Positions 4,355 through 31,685 of a DNA stretch of 64,000 nucleotides are shown piece by piece. The translations under genes and the position numbers were made by a program. The notes beneath the pieces were generated by a model. That model was not told the DNA's origin and searched no databases. It worked only from the letters and a program-made list of their open reading frames with translations. Origin of the DNA: Gammaproteobacteria bacterium (GTDB lineage: Bacteria > Pseudomonadota > Gammaproteobacteria > UBA4575); the NCBI GenBank assembly GCA_965214675.1, contig OZ243969.1:129001-193000 (forward strand). Reading direction: 5' to 3'. Position 1 is the first letter of the stretch. Every line of letters begins with the position of its first letter.

Positions 4355-6415
<2,061 letters not shown>

Positions 6416-10326: not shown

Positions 10327-10572
10327 TCAGCAGGCGGTTTGCATCTCCCATTCAGACGGGGTAAAGGTCTTGATGCTGAGTGCATGCAGTGCACCACTGG
10401 CGATTTGTGCCTTGACGGTCGAATAGACAAGCTGGTGTTCCTTTACCATGCTCATCCCCTCAAAGCATTCACTGATCACGGTTGCCTCGTACTTGCCCTC
10501 AGCACCACTGACAATGGCTTGTGAGTCAGGCACACCTTTTTCAATGAGGGTCTTGATTTCATCTGCTTGCAT
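10327..10572 (-). CDS. ibaG: BolA-family protein (IbaG/YrbA-like)
   Basis: About 81 aa. Aligns with E. coli IbaG (VSGAEGKYEATVISECFEGMSMVKEHQLVY..HALSIKTFTPSEW). Confidence 0.7.
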   Translation of the reverse strand: MQADEIKTLIEKGVPDSQAIVSGAEGKYEATVISECFEGMSMVKEHQLVYSTVKAQIASGALHALSIKTFTPSEWEMQTAC

Positions 10573-10651
10573 AAAAGAACAGGCCTCCTGGCTGGTGGGC
10601 AAAGACGGAGTGTATTAAATTCCATGCTAAGCGCAAAATTATACCCGTTTG

Positions 10652-10800
10652 CGTATTCGATGATAATTATTGGGAATTATGTACCTGAATCCGCAGGGGA
10701 TTCGATACCCGTTTGACGTTTCACAGGCCCGCTACTGCGGCCACCTCCACGTCCAGCAGCCCCATTCTCGAAGGCCAGAATATTCAATGCGGCATTCATG
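10652..10800 (-). ncRNA. predicted TnpB omega-RNA (reRNA) spanning the tnpB 3' end, the right-end TIR and about 20 nt of flank as guide
   Basis: By analogy with characterised TnpB systems. Not verifiable from sequence alone. Confidence 0.3.
10664..10671. repeat. target-site duplication TAATTATT (left copy) flanking the TnpB element
   Basis: Identical 8-mer at 11884-11891, immediately outside both terminal inverted repeats. Confidence 0.7.
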
Positions 10801-11883
10801 TCCGCATTGGCCCGATGCCCGCACTCCACACATTCAAACGTACTTTGTGTTTTACGGTTCTGTTTATCTGTATGTCCACATTCATGGCACGTCTGACTCG
10901 TATACTGTGGGGCAACCTTCACTACACTGGACTTGTACGCCAGGCATTGCTCCAGCTTGTACCAGCTAGAGTTCAGGATGCCCTTGTTAAGTCCTTTTTT
11001 ACCTTTTCCACTAGCCGTCATGCCCTGCGTGTTCAGATCTTCCATGTAAACCGCGTTGTACTTGTCAGCAATCTCCCGGCTGACCTGGTGGCACCAGTTA
11101 GTACGTTTCTGTACGATCTTTTGCTGGGTTCTTGCAGAAAGATTTTTTGCTTTCAGGTAGCGATTGGATGGGGCAACACCCTTCTTTCTATTCCCTGCTT
11201 GTCTGCGTGCCATCATGCGCTGATACCGTCTTTTACGTGCCTCCAGCGTGGATATATCGGGCGTGCAGTACCTTTGCCCATCCGACAGGGTGATCTGTCC
11301 GACATTGCGGTCTATGCCCACAGGCTTGATTGAGGATGGCAGGGCAGTAATCTCAACCTCGTATACGATGTACGCGTACCACTTGCCAGCCTCGTATTTG
11401 AGGGTCCCGCTTTTTGCAATGCCGTCGGTGTAGGGATTGTTTCCACTGAGCCTGAGCTGCCCGATCTTCTGGACGTGCAGGTAATCACCCTGCAACCTGA
11501 ACAGGCTTGTGCCCAAAGGAATAGAGGGTACATGGGTGTATCGTCCATGGAATTTCGGCAGACCGCCTTCGCCCTTGAAAAACTGTTGGTAGGTTGTCTC
11601 GATGGGCTTTAACGCCAAGCGCACAATGTTTGCCGAGTAGTCTTGTAGCCACGGCTTCTGCCTTCTCAGGTTGGTGAAGCGAGGAAGAAGCGAATACCAG
11701 CGTGGATCGCACCGACCATACGCCGTGTATTCATCTTGCAGCACACCGACAAAGTGATTCCACACATAGCGGCAGGCCCCTGCCAGCTCATGCAGCCTGT
11801 GTGCCTTGGCCGGTGTCTGCGGGTGCAGACGATAACGAATCGTGCGGTACGTTTTCATATGCGGATTTTACTACATAATTCCC
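10672..11883 (-). mobile_element. TnpB-only insertion element (IS200/IS605-superfamily cargo) with about 24-bp imperfect terminal inverted repeats, copy 1
   Basis: Ends GGGAATTATGTACCTGAATCCGCA and the reverse complement of GCGGATTTTACTACATAATTCCC are 20/24 identical. Flanked by an 8-bp direct repeat. Single ORF encoding TnpB. No TnpA. Confidence 0.75.
10677..11858 (-). CDS. tnpB: TnpB RNA-guided endonuclease (OrfB), RuvC-like
   Basis: 393 aa. RuvC motifs GIDRNVG, YMEDLN and DADMNAALNI. Zinc finger CHECGH...CVECGH. 86% identical to the second copy at 23504-24685. Confidence 0.88.
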   Translation of the reverse strand: MKTYRTIRYRLHPQTPAKAHRLHELAGACRYVWNHFVGVLQDEYTAYGRCDPRWYSLLPRFTNLRRQKPWLQDYSANIVRLALKPIETTYQQFFKGEGGLPKFHGRYTHVPSIPLGTSLFRLQGDYLHVQKIGQLRLSGNNPYTDGIAKSGTLKYEAGKWYAYIVYEVEITALPSSIKPVGIDRNVGQITLSDGQRYCTPDISTLEARKRRYQRMMARRQAGNRKKGVAPSNRYLKAKNLSARTQQKIVQKRTNWCHQVSREIADKYNAVYMEDLNTQGMTASGKGKKGLNKGILNSSWYKLEQCLAYKSSVVKVAPQYTSQTCHECGHTDKQNRKTQSTFECVECGHRANADMNAALNILAFENGAAGRGGGRSSGPVKRQTGIESPADSGT

Positions 11884-11891
11884 TAATTATT
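11884..11891. repeat. target-site duplication TAATTATT (right copy), overlapping the rnd stop codon
   Basis: Identical to 10664-10671. Confidence 0.7.
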
Positions 11892-22073: not shown

Positions 22074-23366
22074 CTAGAAATCATTGGTATCTTCAGGCGG
22101 AATATTTAACAGTACCCGTGCAGCATCGATCAACTCATTTTTACCCTGCTTGGCGGCCAGGTTGAGTGCTTCACTGGGGTCATGCATGAACTTGTTGCTC
22201 AAGGTATATGCCAGGTAATTCAAGGTTTCATCAACCGACTTTCCCTGTTCAAGCATTTTTTTTGCCTTCTCGAGCACGTCATCGCGCTGGAGTTCAGTCT
22301 TTTCACGAAAGGCCCGCACGGTATCAACTACACCTTGCCCACGCTGCCATAGAAAAAATTTATCGACCTCCCTGGCAATGATCTCCTCGGCAGCTTTTAC
22401 TGCTTTTTGACGGGATTGCAGGTTATGCTCAATGACGTCGTGCAGGTCGTCCACGGTGTATAAGTAAACATCAGAGAGCCCGGCGACTTCAGGCTCAATA
22501 TCCCTGGGTACGGCAAGGTCGACCATAAAAATGGGCTTGTGCCTGCGTTCTTTAAGGGCACGCTCCACCAGCCCCTTGCCAAGGATCGGCAGTGTGCTGG
22601 CTGTGGCCGTGATTACGATCTCGGATTCGGGCAGGACTTCATTGACAAGACTCAAGCCCACCCCGCGTCCACTTACCCGGCTGGCAATGTGTTCGGCACG
22701 TTCGACACTGCGATTGGCGACGACAATCTCACGTATCCCCGCAGCCTTCAAATGCTCTGCTGCAAGTTCAATGGTTTCGCCTGCACCGATCAGCAGGGCA
22801 GAATGATGGTGCAGCTCCCCGAATATCTTTTTCGACAGTGAGACGGCGGCAGAGGCTACGGATACAGGGTTTGCACCGATTTCCGTGCTGGTTCGAACCT
22901 CCTTGGCGACACTGAAGGCATGCTGAAAAAGCTGGTTGAGAGTGCGCCCGACGGTACCCGCCTGTGAGGCGTCCTGGTATGCAGATTTCAGCTGTCCCAG
23001 AATTTGTGGTTCCCCGATCACCATCGAATCCAGTCCGCAAGCCACACGGAAGATATGGTGGACGGTGGAATGGTCCTGGTAGTCATACAGATAAGGCGTC
23101 GTGTGTTCAGATTTCAGGTTATGGAAGGTATTCAACCAGTTCAGGATGCCCTTTCTGCCTTCTTGCATTTGCGTGACTTCGCAGTACATCTCGGTGCGGT
23201 TACAGGTTGAGACAATCAGTGCCTCCTCCACCTGGGGAACTTCAATTAACTTCCGCAGGGCGGATCGCAGATTCTGCTCGCTGATCGCGACAAGTTCACG
23301 CACATGAACCGGTGCCGTCGTGTGATTAATGCCAAGCGTGAGCAGCGACATGGGAACAGCCAGCAT
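22074..23366 (-). CDS. hemA: glutamyl-tRNA reductase
   Basis: 430 aa. STCNRTE active-site region. Classic hemA-prfA-prmC order. Confidence 0.93.
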   Translation of the reverse strand: MLAVPMSLLTLGINHTTAPVHVRELVAISEQNLRSALRKLIEVPQVEEALIVSTCNRTEMYCEVTQMQEGRKGILNWLNTFHNLKSEHTTPYLYDYQDHSTVHHIFRVACGLDSMVIGEPQILGQLKSAYQDASQAGTVGRTLNQLFQHAFSVAKEVRTSTEIGANPVSVASAAVSLSKKIFGELHHHSALLIGAGETIELAAEHLKAAGIREIVVANRSVERAEHIASRVSGRGVGLSLVNEVLPESEIVITATASTLPILGKGLVERALKERRHKPIFMVDLAVPRDIEPEVAGLSDVYLYTVDDLHDVIEHNLQSRQKAVKAAEEIIAREVDKFFLWQRGQGVVDTVRAFREKTELQRDDVLEKAKKMLEQGKSVDETLNYLAYTLSNKFMHDPSEALNLAAKQGKNELIDAARVLLNIPPEDTNDF

Positions 23367-23481
23367 TTATTGAAAATACCGGGCAAATACGTTGGGTAGC
23401 AGACATCGTATAGTCAGTTTCAGCCATTATTGATTTTGCCAAATTGCATGTGTAATGCCCAGTTATCTGAAGTAATATTGT

Positions 23482-24690
23482 GGGATTATGTAGCAAAATC
23501 CGCATGAAGACACACCGTACCATTTGTTACCGTCTGCACCCGCAAACACAGGCCAAGGCCCGCAAGCTGCATGAACTGGCAGGCGCCTGCCGCTATGTCT
23601 GGAATCACTTTGTCGGTGTGCTGCAAGATGAGTACAAGGCCTATGGGCGGTGTGATCCACGCTGGTTTGTGTTGAATTACCGATTTGCCAACCTGCGAAA
23701 GCAGGTGCCATGGCTGAAAGACTATGCATCCAACATTGTCCGGTTGTCATTAAAACCCATCGAGACAGCATACAAGCAATTCTACAAGGGAGAAGGCGGG
23801 CTGCCTAAATTCCACGGTAAACATACACACTCCCCATCTATTCCTTTGGGTGCAGGCTTGTTCAGGTTGCAGGGTGATTACCTGCATGTCCAGAAGATCG
23901 GGCAGCTCAAGCTGACAGGCAATAATCCTTATCCGGACGGTATCGTCAAGAGTGGTACGATCAAGTACGAAGCAGGCAAGTGGTATGCCTACATCACCAG
24001 TGAAGTACAGATCACGGCATTACCTGCATCCATCAAGCCTGTAGGCATAGACCGCAATGTCGGGCAGATTACGCTTTCAGACGGGCAAAGGTACTGCACG
24101 CCGGATACAGCCATGCTGGAAGCCCGGAAGCGCAGATACCAAAGAATGATGGCGCGCAGACAGAAAGGAAGCAGGAAGCAAGGGATCAAGCCCTCCAATC
24201 GCTACCTGAAAGCAAAGGGCCTTGCGGCACGCACTCAACAGCACATCGTGCAGAAACGTACAAACTGGTGTCACCAGGTATCCAGAGAAATTGCCGACCA
24301 GTATAACGTGGTCTACATGGAAGATCTGAATACGCAGGGCATGACGGCTAGTGGAAAAGGTAAAAAAGGACTTAACAAGGGCATCCTGAACTCTAGCTGG
24401 TACAAGCTGGAGCAGTGCCTGTCGTACAAGTCCAGTGTAGTGAAGGTTGCCCCACAGTACACGAGTCAGACGTGCCATGAATGTGGGCATGTCGACAAGA
24501 AGAATCGAAAGACCCAGTCAGGCTTTGAGTGCGTAGCCTGTGGGCATCGGGATAATGCGGACATGAATGCCGCATTGAATATTATGGCCTTCGGGAATGG
24601 GGCTGCTGGACGTGGAGGTCGCCGCAGTAGCGGGCCTGTGAAGCGTCAAACGGGTATCGAATCCCCTGCGGATTTAGGTACATAATTCCC
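23482..24690 (+). mobile_element. TnpB-only insertion element with terminal inverted repeats, copy 2 (diverged)
   Basis: Ends GGGATTATGTAGCAAAATCCGCA and TGCGGATTTAGGTACATAATTCCC are inverted copies. Flanks AATATTGT and TATTGGTA share only TATTG, so the target-site duplication is eroded. Inserted in the divergent hemA/TPR-lolB promoter region. Confidence 0.75.
23504..24685 (+). CDS. tnpB: TnpB RNA-guided endonuclease (OrfB), RuvC-like
   Basis: 393 aa from MKTHRT. Same RuvC and Zn-finger motifs as copy 1. The ORF is intact. Confidence 0.88.
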   Translation: MKTHRTICYRLHPQTQAKARKLHELAGACRYVWNHFVGVLQDEYKAYGRCDPRWFVLNYRFANLRKQVPWLKDYASNIVRLSLKPIETAYKQFYKGEGGLPKFHGKHTHSPSIPLGAGLFRLQGDYLHVQKIGQLKLTGNNPYPDGIVKSGTIKYEAGKWYAYITSEVQITALPASIKPVGIDRNVGQITLSDGQRYCTPDTAMLEARKRRYQRMMARRQKGSRKQGIKPSNRYLKAKGLAARTQQHIVQKRTNWCHQVSREIADQYNVVYMEDLNTQGMTASGKGKKGLNKGILNSSWYKLEQCLSYKSSVVKVAPQYTSQTCHECGHVDKKNRKTQSGFECVACGHRDNADMNAALNIMAFGNGAAGRGGRRSSGPVKRQTGIESPADLGT

Positions 24691-24710
24691 TATTGGTATA
24701 GTCTAATCGA
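24560..24710 (+). ncRNA. predicted TnpB omega-RNA with a guide extending into the flank TATTGGTATAGTCTAATC
   Basis: Analogy only. Confidence 0.3.
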
Positions 24711-24732
24711 ACTATTAACTCAACACAGCATA

Positions 24733-26490
24733 TTGGCAGTCAATCTCACCATCCTGCGTGTTTTCTGGGTCCCAATGATGCTGCTTGCTGGGCTGGGCTT
24801 GGTCGGTTGCGCAAGCACACCTGCTGATACCACGGCAAAAGACCCGATTCCGAACCCGGACCCGTCGCCTGCAATCAGTCGCCCACCTGCCCCTGAGTAC
24901 GGTCCTCACTCGGATCTCCTGTATGCAATTCTCCTCGGTGAACTGTCTGGTCAGTTCAACGACGTGAACCAGGCATTGGAGCATTACATGCGTGCGAGCC
25001 AGCTGAGCAGCGACCCGGCGGTGGCTGAACGAACGACACGGATCGCTATGGTGGCCAAGAATTGGGAAGCAGGGTTGCAGGCGGCACATCGCTGGTCCGA
25101 ACTGGCAGGTAGTGATCCGAAATTAAATCAGGTCCTTGGTGTGCTGGAACTGCGCAATGGCAACGTTGACAAGGCCGTTGTGCAATTCGAAATGCTCATG
25201 CTGAGTACCGGCGATTCTCCGGAAAAGGGCTTTGATATCCTGGGCGCGATTCTTGCCCGCGAGTCAGATTCCGATTCGGCGGCACGGGTGCTCGAGAAGC
25301 TGGTCAACAAGTACTTTGAAAATCCCTATGGACATCTCATACTCGCGGGCCTCGCACTGCAGGCAAGAGATTATCTGCGTGCACTGGATGAAAGTGAGCT
25401 GGCGATCGGGTTTGCACCAGAGCTGACAGATGCCCGTATTATGCGGGTCCAGGCCCTGTTAGGACTCGAGGAAACGGATGCTGCGCTCAAGGATATGAAA
25501 GTGCTTGCCGGGGAAACCCCGGAAAACCGTGAATTGCGCATGTCGTATGCGCGAATGCTGCTGACAGCAAAAAGATACGAAGAAGCCGAAGTTGAGTTTG
25601 AGTCCCTGTATGCAGAAAACCGTGATGACAGTGAACTGATCTATACCCTCGGACTGTTGCATCTGCAGCAAGAGCAGTTTGAAGCAGCCAAGGCAGATTT
25701 TACCCGTCTGATGCAAAGCAGCCAGCGTAAAGACGAAGGACATTACTACCTGGGACGGATCGCTGAACAGCAGAAAGATTTTTTGACAGCCATCACTGAA
25801 TTTGAACAGGTCGGGAGGGGACAATATTTCCTGGATTCCAGGGCCCGAATTGCTTCCGTTTATGTCGAGACCAAAGGTCTTGAAAAAGCACAACAGTACT
25901 TGGCGGAGTTTCGCAGTCGGCTGAATACACCGGATGAAATCGTTCAAGTGTACCTGGTCGAAGGGCAACTGCTACACGAGAAGGAACTCTATGTGATCGC
26001 CATCGACCTTTATAGTGAAGGTTTGCAAAAATATCCGGGTCACCGCGATTTGCTGTATGCACGGGCCCTGATGGCAGAGGAAATTGACCGGATCGATTTG
26101 CTTGAATCTGATCTGAGAGCCATTCTGTCCGAGGATCCTGACAATGCCTTGGCATTGAACGCCTTGGGGTATACCCTGGCCGATCACAACTCTCGGATTG
26201 GTGAAGCGTTGAAATACGTCGAGCGTGCCCTGGAAATTCGCCCGGATGACCCCGCGGTCATTGACAGCATGGGCTGGGTTCAGTTTCGTTTGGGCAATTA
26301 TGAGCGGGCAGAGCAGTATTTACGCAGGGCATACCAGTTGCTTGAGGATGCTGAAATTGGAGGACATCTTGTGGAGTTGTTCTGGGCGCAAGGGGATCAC
26401 GACAGCGCACAAAAGATGATGCAGGAAGTGCTGGAGCGTTTTCCCGACGAGGAATACCTGCTGGAACTGCAAAAAAAATTCCAGCAGTAA
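24733..26490 (+). CDS. TPR-repeat lipoprotein
   Basis: Signal peptide plus lipobox LVGC. Multiple TPR-like repeats. Same position as the TPR gene upstream of lolB in Pseudomonas. Confidence 0.75.
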   Translation: MAVNLTILRVFWVPMMLLAGLGLVGCASTPADTTAKDPIPNPDPSPAISRPPAPEYGPHSDLLYAILLGELSGQFNDVNQALEHYMRASQLSSDPAVAERTTRIAMVAKNWEAGLQAAHRWSELAGSDPKLNQVLGVLELRNGNVDKAVVQFEMLMLSTGDSPEKGFDILGAILARESDSDSAARVLEKLVNKYFENPYGHLILAGLALQARDYLRALDESELAIGFAPELTDARIMRVQALLGLEETDAALKDMKVLAGETPENRELRMSYARMLLTAKRYEEAEVEFESLYAENRDDSELIYTLGLLHLQQEQFEAAKADFTRLMQSSQRKDEGHYYLGRIAEQQKDFLTAITEFEQVGRGQYFLDSRARIASVYVETKGLEKAQQYLAEFRSRLNTPDEIVQVYLVEGQLLHEKELYVIAIDLYSEGLQKYPGHRDLLYARALMAEEIDRIDLLESDLRAILSEDPDNALALNALGYTLADHNSRIGEALKYVERALEIRPDDPAVIDSMGWVQFRLGNYERAEQYLRRAYQLLEDAEIGGHLVELFWAQGDHDSAQKMMQEVLERFPDEEYLLELQKKFQQ

Positions 26491-28042: not shown

Positions 28043-28117
28043 TGGGCCGTCGCCAAGTGGTAAGGCACCGGGTTTTGATCCCGGCATTCGCAGGTTCGAA
28101 TCCTGCCGGCCCAGCCA
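28043..28117 (+). tRNA. tRNA-Gln (anticodon UUG)
   Basis: Near-identical to E. coli tRNA-Gln: TGGG..TCGCCAAGTGGTAAGGCACCGGGTTTTGATCCCGGCATTC..GGTTCGAATCC..CCAGCCA. Anticodon loop TTTTGAT. Confidence 0.9.
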
Positions 28118-31608: not shown

Positions 31609-31685
31609 GGCTATGTAGCTCAGCTGGTTAGAGCACAGCATTCATAATGCTGGGGTCGTTGGTTCAAGTCCAACCATAGCCACCA
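31609..31685 (+). tRNA. tRNA-Met (CAU), elongator type (tRNA-Ile2/lysidine not excluded)
   Basis: GGCTATGTAGCTCAGCTGGTTAGAGCACAGCATTCATAATGCTGGGGTCGTTGGTTCAAGTCCAACCATAGCCACCA. Close to E. coli metT. Anticodon loop TTCATAA. Encoded CCA. Confidence 0.88.

Follow-up and report, generated by a model that had tools for sequence, protein, structure and literature searches.

RNA-guided TnpB nucleases are understood mainly from IS605 and IS607 elements, in which excision is scarless, no target duplication is made, and the target-adjacent motif (TAM) is also the target of the transposase. IS200/IS605 and IS607 elements have neither terminal inverted repeats (TIRs) nor target-site duplications (TSDs); IS605 elements carry subterminal hairpins and insert 3' of a fixed tetra- or pentanucleotide, and IS607 elements end in GG (PMC13565253, PMC4810608). 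Here, we describe a differently built tnpB element in a 64,000-nt stretch of contig OZ243969.1 from a gammaproteobacterial assembly (GCA_965214675.1). This whole stretch is called "the window" below, and positions are counted from its first nucleotide. The element, termed copy 2 (23482–24690, + strand, 1,209 bp), had been singled out in a first-pass annotation and lies between hemA and a gene cluster that begins with a tetratricopeptide-repeat (TPR) lipoprotein gene and lolB. From its sequence and that of its relatives, we consider it probable (about 0.75) that copy 2 is a non-autonomous IS1595-family transposon whose sole cargo is a TnpB/guide-RNA module.

The presence of TnpB on transposons with DDE transposases and inverted repeats is already known. 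Altae-Tran et al. (2023, PNAS; PMC10691335) describe six DDE-associated TnpB branches (DDE-1 to DDE-6) and name IS630-linked TnpBs; these TnpBs end no more than 250 bp from the transposon end, and solo TnpBs share their ends with transposase-bearing elements, which points to mobilization in trans. A 2026 review lists DDE-linked TnpB in ISL2, IS630, and IS1031 and discusses why the combination is rare among prokaryotes, without settling what advantage it brings (PMC13565253). Fanzor1 in Tc1/mariner and other DDE transposons is likewise a TnpB-family nuclease carried as cargo between TIRs and TSDs (PMC3627910, PMC13565253). The IS1595 family itself is characterized by 8-bp TSDs and by transposases with a zinc finger and a DDE_Tnp_IS1595 domain; it shares TIRs that start with GG and TSDs of 8–9 bp with its eukaryotic relative Merlin (PMC8101967). 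No report of IS1595 and TnpB as a functional pair was found in the literature searched, which included part of PMC10691335 but not its supplement of element ends, and none was found there of Fanzor in Merlin elements.

Copy 2 resembles several of these systems. Its protein has the architecture and catalytic residues of the TnpBs of IS200/IS605 (IS1341-group) and IS607 elements (e.g., ISDra2 TnpB; PDB 8exa, 8bf8, and 8h1j). As in IS605/IS607 tnpB elements, a structured RNA is predicted to span the 3' end of the gene and abut the right end, and tnpB-only copies would need a transposase in trans. Unlike copy 2, those elements have asymmetric ends, make no duplication, and insert beside a fixed 4–5-nt motif that serves as the TAM. 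With the DDE-1 to DDE-6 TnpBs, as presented in PMC10691335, copy 2 shares an inverted-repeat transposon, a tnpB 3' end near the transposon end, and the occurrence of solo copies; the difference is that no element with both genes was found here. In contrast to Fanzor, the host is bacterial and the TnpB compact. IS1595 elements have TIRs that begin with GGGAATTAT and AT-rich 8-bp target duplications, as does copy 2, and those at loci L094, L008, and L085 and at many metagenome loci have near-identical 24-nt ends, often with passenger genes. Unlike them, copy 2 has no transposase, its single gene encodes a predicted RNA-guided nuclease, its right repeat apparently doubles as the 3' end of an RNA, and its kind inserts at sites with an orientation-specific motif. 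What may be new here is the IS1595 partner, the sharing of sequence between repeat and scaffold, and the asymmetry of the target.

Copy 2 belongs to a widespread family that lends itself well to the study of an RNA-guided nuclease carried by a TSD-generating transposon. The family supplies many independent insertions with exact boundaries, empty sites, and candidate partner transposases. It also contains a built-in control, in that the same ends occur with and without tnpB; this control already reveals the orientation-specific bias.

Structure of copy 2 and its TnpB

Copy 2 is bounded by inverted ends of 23 and 24 nt: a left end at 23482–23504 (GGGATTATGTAGCAAAATCCGCA) and a right end at 24667–24690 (TGCGGATTTAGGTACATAATTCCC), both given on the + strand. 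The left end is one base short of the form found in copy 1, the other tnpB element of the window, and in the family at large (GGGAATTATG). When the window was searched for the left-end pattern with up to three mismatches, exactly three sites were found (both ends of copy 2 and one end of copy 1), against an expectation of zero from 100 shuffles. The first-pass view of copy 2 as a second TnpB element, diverged from copy 1 but sharing its inverted ends, is upheld.

The only open reading frame (ORF), tnpB (23504–24685, + strand; stop codon at 24683–24685), fills the element and encodes 393 residues. Its ATG abuts the left repeat, leaving no space for a promoter or a Shine-Dalgarno sequence between the two, and its stop codon lies inside the right repeat. 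The protein matches HTH_OrfB_IS605, OrfB_IS605, and Cas12f1-like_TNB in Pfam and guided_TnpB in NCBIfam (212 bits), and it aligns over nearly its full length to ISDra2 TnpB structures (E 3e-28). The RuvC triad (D183, E273, and D353) is present, as are CxxC pairs at 324/327 and 343/346; the assignment of the catalytic residues rests on alignment to ISDra2-type TnpB (8exa/8bf8). An intact TnpB with its catalytic residues retained, as the first-pass annotation had proposed, is thus what we find.

The right repeat of copy 2 also holds an outward-facing –10-like hexamer, CATAAT (24681–24686); in the family right-end consensus (GTATATAATTCCC), the outward-pointing hexamer is TATAAT, and the left-end core of the family has it as well, with no convincing –35 at either end. 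At the other end, many relatives (e.g., L012, L023, and L035) and IS1595 elements (L102 and L125) have an inward TTGACT or TTGACA in or just past the left repeat, which is likely a –35 element for the cargo gene. The window subfamily and L094 do not have it, and tnpB begins right at the repeat. Additional lone repeat cores stand beside complete elements at L012:2930–2942, L080:2930–2942, and L072:4262–4274; they may be leftovers of earlier insertions or signs of nested or tandem insertion.

IS1595-type ends without a transposase

Relatives were collected in a scan of one genome per species, which yielded 80 tnpB loci (L001–L080; TnpB identity 35–77%), all of them in metagenome-assembled genomes (MAGs). 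At most of these loci, and down to 35% TnpB identity, the TIR core GGGAATTATATAC / GTATATAATTCCC bounds elements in which tnpB is the only gene. Nearly all of these elements are 1.2–1.4 kb long between copies of the same 13-nt core. A census of 64 distinct tnpB-only insertions, with shifted positions as background, gave perfect 8-bp duplications in 31 and duplications matching at 7 of 8 positions in another 7; the shifted controls never exceeded 6 of 8.

The same ends flank IS1595 transposase genes. A metagenome scan with a transposase alignment supplied 80 further loci, from sources that include peat, soil, and gut. The majority have the same core at both ends, and perfect 8-bp duplications were seen in 18 of 30. 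A subgroup core, GGGAAYTATATAC, is shared by tnpB elements and by the IS1595-transposase elements at L008, L085, L094, and about 35 metagenome loci, at both ends in each case. The L008 insertion sequence (L008:238–1519; 1,282 bp), which sits 1.4 kb from a tnpB element, has a perfect 24-bp TIR that begins with the core variant GGGAACTATATAC and an 8-bp duplication (ATTGCCGC). Its 309-residue protein matches DDE_Tnp_IS1595 (1e-43), Zn_ribbon_IS1595, and the NCBIfam family transpos_IS1595. Ends nearly identical to those of copy 2 are found at L094, in a gammaproteobacterial MAG, on a 2,680-bp element (L094:4606–7285) with perfect 24-bp TIRs (GGGAATTATGTAGCAAAATCTGCA) and the duplication AAATGGCC. 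Its genes specify an IS1595 transposase and a fusion of a DNA methylase with an HNH nuclease. Its TIR (4606–4629) agrees with the left end of copy 2 at 22 of 24 positions, including the inner part, which varies between subfamilies.

No IS1595 transposase was detected by tblastn in the 64-kb window, and none of about 90 transposase loci holds an element with both an IS1595 transposase and tnpB (loci L082–L178 gave no TnpB match). We therefore regard the tnpB elements as non-autonomous and as presumably moved in trans. The noncoding tail of the L008 insertion sequence has no similarity to tnpB elements. A search for inverted repeats around plasmid-borne IS1595 transposases at 37–44% identity (Entomospira, Methylocystis, and Pseudosulfitobacter) revealed no clear ends, with weak core-like matches upstream of two of them.

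The subgroup closest to these elements appears to be the ISNwi1 / ISNwi1+ of ISfinder, with ends "ggnnatTAT", 8-bp repeats, and, in the "+" form, passenger genes. Many of the IS1595 elements with these ends do have such a gene, which follows the transposase gene immediately and overlaps it. At L094, L086, L089, and L090, the passenger combines an N6/N4 DNA methyltransferase with an HNH nuclease in one protein; for L085, the methyltransferase domain alone is visible in the stretch analyzed. Small flanking ORFs are also present in L094. By eye, L145, L153, and L171 appear to have C5- or N6-methylase-like and unknown passenger genes. The methylase-HNH passengers could constitute a restriction-modification-like addiction module on an insertion sequence.

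The 80 tnpB loci come from Gammaproteobacteria, Oxydemutator/Porisulfidus, Opitutales, Dadabacteria/Thermodesulfobacteriota, Poribacteria, Caldilineaceae, and Spirochaetia. Bin names and titles suggest that the host MAGs are symbionts of sponges and other marine invertebrates. The occurrence of the family in at least six phylum-level groups that apparently share a marine host-associated habitat suggests horizontal spread within that community.

A predicted RNA structure at the 3' end of tnpB

A putative scaffold resembling an omega RNA occupies 24556–24690 (+ strand); it covers the 3' end of tnpB and terminates in the right TIR. The consensus structure was calculated with RNAalifold from the last 230 nt of 28 family members, with column shuffles and slid pairing partners as controls. 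It comprises 21 pairs, 12 of which show compensatory double changes. Paired cells amounted to 95%, as opposed to 80% in the shuffles and 30–47% when partners were slid, and there were 88 double-change cells versus 30 in the shuffles. In copy 2, the stems fall at 24556–60/24570–74, 24587–91/24599–603, 24609–13/24643–47, 24617–19/24634–36, and 24623–25/24630–32. A terminal hairpin, seen by eye only, lies at approximately 24655–24677, ahead of the 13-nt right-repeat core. The 3' half of this hairpin coincides with the inner half of the right repeat. Such a role may explain how the inner repeat varies between subfamilies and yet is matched between the two ends of each element.

A synonymous divergence of about 0.7 per site separates copies 1 and 2 through most of tnpB, but the proportion of synonymous differences collapses to 0.04 in the last 33 codons. 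Non-synonymous change in these codons is no lower than elsewhere. The pattern points to a constraint on the nucleotide sequence. Rfam gave no match to the 3' structure, either at gathering thresholds in the whole window or at E ≤ 1 for 23400–24800. This structure of about 135 nt is arranged as would be expected if the guide were transcribed from the flank, and it is probably a guide-RNA (omega RNA) scaffold. By analogy with IS605/IS607 TnpB and with the DDE-linked TnpBs of PMC10691335, the guide segment of a read-through omega RNA would be 24691–24710 (+ strand), immediately beyond the right end.

Insertion history and mosaicism

The flanks of copy 2 read AATATTGT | element | TATTGGTA, with TATTG on both sides. 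A comparison with relatives that lack the insertion, as the first-pass annotation had suggested, located the empty site in L175–L178. Gene order is kept there (lolB and the TPR gene on one side, hemA, prfA, and prmC divergently on the other), and the hemA/TPR-lolB interval measures 209 nt. HemA identity to these relatives is 93% and 91%, and hemA synonymous divergence (dS) is 0.67 and 1.35. The empty site reads CTGAAGTAATAT(T)CGGTATAGTC; once the element is removed, the window has CTGAAGTAATATTGT + TATTGGTATAGTC, that is, with 5–6 extra bases and TATTG twice. The left copy of the decayed target duplication is thus 23474–23481 (AATATTGT) or, in an alternative register, 23473–23480 (TAATATTG); the right remnant is 24691–24696 (TATTGG), with 2–3 bases lost at the junction. 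The junction can be parsed in two ways at the same cost, as AATATTGG with one nucleotide deleted at the left end or as TAATATTG with two left-end substitutions. The empty-site comparison (L175, L177, and L178) bears out the earlier proposal of a decayed 8-bp duplication, of which TATTG is the remnant. As judged from these alignments, the insertion at hemA is derived and younger than the split from the relatives with a hemA dS of 0.67. Copy 2 is probably now immobile at this locus, given its left end (one base missing or two substituted) and the 2–3 nt deleted at the right junction, and the copy is perhaps decaying.

A sister strain (locus L081; ENA ERZ25070917 ctg118181) has the insertion at the same position with identical junctions; the flanks differ by 1–2% and hemA dS is 0.013. 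The first 350 nt and last 165 nt of its element are 93–100% identical to those of copy 2, whereas the interior differs by up to 20–50%. Over 24139–24258, it is nearer to copy 1 (88–95%) than to copy 2 (73–82%), and over 24319–24405, it is unlike either copy, with 33 extra nt that also occur in other family members. The interior is therefore partly copy-1-like and partly of a third lineage. Amid this interior variation, the two strains show no difference in the RNA scaffold and right end (100% identity).

Copy 1 (10672–11883, – strand; 1,212 bp) carries a 393-codon tnpB at 10677–11858 and is flanked by a perfect 8-bp duplication at 10664–10671 and 11884–11891 (TAATTATT on the + strand). It is inserted at the stop codon of an RNase D gene, and 69 nt separate it from the first possible start of a co-oriented 91-codon ORF downstream (10327–10602, – strand). 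An alignment of the two copies, also suggested at the outset, showed 81% nucleotide identity in the coding sequences and inverted ends common to both; similarity among copy 2, copy 1, and other family members ends at the right TIR boundary. The proteins agree at 336 of 393 positions (85%), in keeping with the earlier figure of about 86%. This identity had been taken to mean old paralogous insertions, but age cannot be read from it, since the copies are mosaics: codons 271–320 are almost identical between them. Between the RuvC-II glutamate and the zinc finger, 11 codons are missing from the two copies of the window (MTASGKGKKGLNKG; window 24314–24403) but present in L081 and, by eye, in other family members (MTASAKGNAENPGTHVKHKAGLNKS); the near-identical block around the missing codons looks like a shared conversion tract. 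Evidently, paralogous tnpB copies exchange segments by frequent gene conversion. The ratio of non-synonymous to synonymous divergence (dN/dS) between the two tnpB genes is 0.10 (dS 0.91). The lineages have evolved as functional genes, which is no proof of present selection on the copy at hemA.

An orientation-specific target motif

Insertions from L001–L080 and copy 1 of the window were oriented by tnpB, and their empty sites were reconstructed. A purine stands immediately left of the duplication in 39 of 40 insertions with duplications of at least 7/8, and in 42 of 42 when the threshold is lowered to 6/8. The first duplicated base is A in 35 of the 40 and in 35 of the 42, and no mirrored preference was found at the opposite edge of the duplication. 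The purine rule applies irrespective of context: 13 of 13 intergenic insertions, 17 of 17 near co-oriented ORF starts, 9 of 9 in same-strand ORFs, and 3 of 3 in opposite-strand ORFs. Subfamilies differ in the adjoining base, with TA|A in 6 of 8 insertions of one cluster and TG|A in 6 of 9 of another. The control set of 20 transposase-bearing elements with the same ends behaves differently. Their left base is a purine in 11 of 20, A and T each account for 8 of 20 at position 1, and the AT-rich preference is symmetric at both duplication edges, as expected for a DDE enzyme.

Tentatively, and at less than even odds, we read the "purine | A" motif as a TAM footprint, with the duplication and the right flank as the guide. 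The motif is where a TAM would be expected, because motif, 8 bp, and flank are contiguous in the empty allele. In the occupied allele, the left duplication copy would match the guide over 8 nt only, and the right copy would be preceded by the repeat rather than by the motif. Were this reading correct, it would imply TnpB-driven retention that is independent of the transposition chemistry, and the family would offer compact nucleases with a guide scaffold that ends in a defined 13-nt repeat. It would also be a natural case of an RNA-guided nuclease that biases the inheritance of a TSD-generating bacterial transposon.

Proposed mechanism

In the scheme that we envisage, an IS1595 transposase acting in trans would cut at the inverted repeats and insert the element with a staggered 8-bp cut. 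Transcription of tnpB would come from host-side read-through, and the transcript would run beyond the right end. Its 3' part would become an omega RNA whose guide consists of the duplicated 8 bp and the right flank. TnpB could then cut element-free copies of the site, and recombinational repair would copy the element in, a form of retention or gene drive analogous to that of IS605/IS607 TnpB (TnpB as a gene drive is treated in bioRxiv 10.1101/2025.02.20.638934). Expression of the essential neighboring operons would start in the retained flanks or would rely on the element, through read-through or outward transcription. The evolutionary counterpart of this scheme is more speculative, and we consider it rather unlikely in its entirety: a TnpB/omega-RNA clade would have moved onto IS1595 ends, the right repeat would have become the 3' end of the scaffold, and purine | A would be a homing or drive footprint on DDE insertions of otherwise symmetric preference.

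Alternative explanations

Several observations weigh against the IS1595 reading and the functions attached to it. A cognate transposase for copy 2 was not seen in this organism, of which 64 kb are in view, and the two genes were not found together on any element among about 90 transposase loci. The tnpB of L081 has a 2-nt deletion near 24078 that splits it into pieces of 191 and 203 residues. The information content of the target motif is low (about 1 bit per position) and could have a cause other than a TAM, and the copy 2 site itself has T or G at the purine position, depending on how the junction is parsed. Conservation of the 3' end between the copies could be due in part to gene conversion rather than RNA constraint, although the covariation across 28 sequences speaks against conversion as the sole cause. 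As for the type of element, TnpB is classically tied to the IS605 and IS607 families, the matches to OrfB_IS605 and guided_TnpB recall them, and the right end contains a small hairpin. Nonetheless, we judge it very improbable that copy 2 belongs to the ordinary tnpB-only elements of the IS200/IS605 group (IS1341 type) or the IS607 type, with a Y1 or serine TnpA to move it. These families are excluded on the grounds that 24-nt inverted ends and 8-bp duplications, neither of which they possess, are the rule here; moreover, the same ends flank IS1595 DDE transposase genes, and the NCBIfam scores are far under the equivalog cut-offs (IS200_TnpB, 176 vs. 425; IS607_TnpB, 107 vs. 350). Apart from the type of element, the purine | A motif might be a by-product of tolerated sites upstream of co-oriented genes, near purine-rich ribosome-binding sites, an explanation that is possible but falls short of probable. 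Insertions of the family are intergenic in 46 of 64 cases; where a gene lies within 300 nt to the right, it is co-oriented with tnpB in 32 of 40 (32:8), as it is for both window copies (<100 nt); 17 of 42 insertions are at, or within 60 nt of, a co-oriented ORF start; and many left flanks resemble a Shine-Dalgarno sequence or ATG. Against it stand the adherence of the other intergenic insertions and of those in ORFs of either strand to the purine rule, the strict register of the motif with the duplication, and its differences between subfamilies. Left-flank ATGs are in frame with a long ORF in 5 of 11 cases, which is about chance.

An IS1595-type origin is compatible with a further alternative, which concerns present activity: the hemA copy may be a dead relic whose tnpB is drifting, with its intactness kept only by gene conversion and nothing functional at the locus. 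We hold this to be somewhat unlikely. The damaged left-end core, the deletion at the right junction, and the decayed duplication agree with it, as do the frameshifted L081 ortholog, an interior that is a mosaic of at least three lineages, and the lack of an IS1595 transposase in the window. It fits poorly with the intact ORF of the window strain, its complete catalytic residues, a dN/dS of 0.10, and the perfect identity of scaffold and right end in both strains despite interior variation. The first-pass suggestion of selection for TnpB function accordingly fares unevenly, being supported by purifying selection between the lineages but weakened at the hemA locus by the frameshift in the sister strain. 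Domestication of TnpB as a TldR-like RNA-guided regulator of hemA or of the TPR-lolB-ispE operon has in its favor a position 42 nt upstream of the latter operon and co-oriented with it, so that a read-through guide would match the operon leader; the family-wide excess of co-oriented right neighbors points the same way. Exapted TldR proteins are described as nuclease-dead and are expected in a single-copy, non-mobile setting beside a regulated gene, whereas the RuvC triad of copy 2 is intact. Furthermore, the element belongs to a multicopy transposon whose duplications lie at unrelated sites, relatives do without it, and in the sister strain its tnpB is frameshifted, all of which make such a role most improbable. 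We thus retain the interpretation of copy 2 as a TnpB-carrying, non-autonomous IS1595-family transposon.

The divided hemA/TPR-lolB interval

To the left of the element, hemA (glutamyl-tRNA reductase; 22074–23351, – strand) is transcribed away from it; to the right, the TPR lipoprotein gene (24733–26490, + strand) is the first of the TPR-lolB-ispE cluster and is co-oriented with tnpB. The left end is 115 nt from the first ATG of the hemA ORF (23366) and 130 nt from the conserved start codon (23351); all HemA homologues have 425 residues and start at the codon equivalent to 23351. The right end is 42 nt from the TTG start of the TPR gene (24733). In support of this start, L175 and L178 share the residues encoded upstream of a later ATG, and that ATG is itself not conserved in L178. 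The distances confirm the first-pass placement of the insertion between the two operons and near both.

The element was also said to fill the whole regulatory region. Instead, it divides a conserved 209-nt block, of which about 130 nt remain on the hemA side and 42 nt on the TPR side. About 50 nt to the left and at least about 40 nt to the right of the insertion point are nearly invariant among the window, L175, and L178, although hemA is saturated at synonymous sites (conserved segments: window 23400–23481 and 24691–24775; L175:2291–2501; L178). Some regulatory element or a small RNA may reside in this near-invariant block, which the transposon has now bisected. The hemA-prfA-prmC / TPR-lolB-ispE locus is thus a natural experiment on the disruption or replacement of promoters by a mobile element.

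A promoter scan found one site for hemA that matches at 9 of 12 positions (23454–23426, – strand), outside the element, and one internal site (24558–24585, + strand). The same scan of the empty interval of L175 found nothing, and the conserved block has no recognizable sigma-70 promoter; none was found in the TIRs, where CATAAT lacks an acceptable –35. It is plausible that host-side transcription runs through tnpB into the TPR-lolB operon, as tnpB has no room for a promoter of its own. Elsewhere in the window, the Rfam scan identified a TPP riboswitch and two tRNA genes, at 4363–4462, 28043–28114, and 31609–31682, respectively, all on the + strand.

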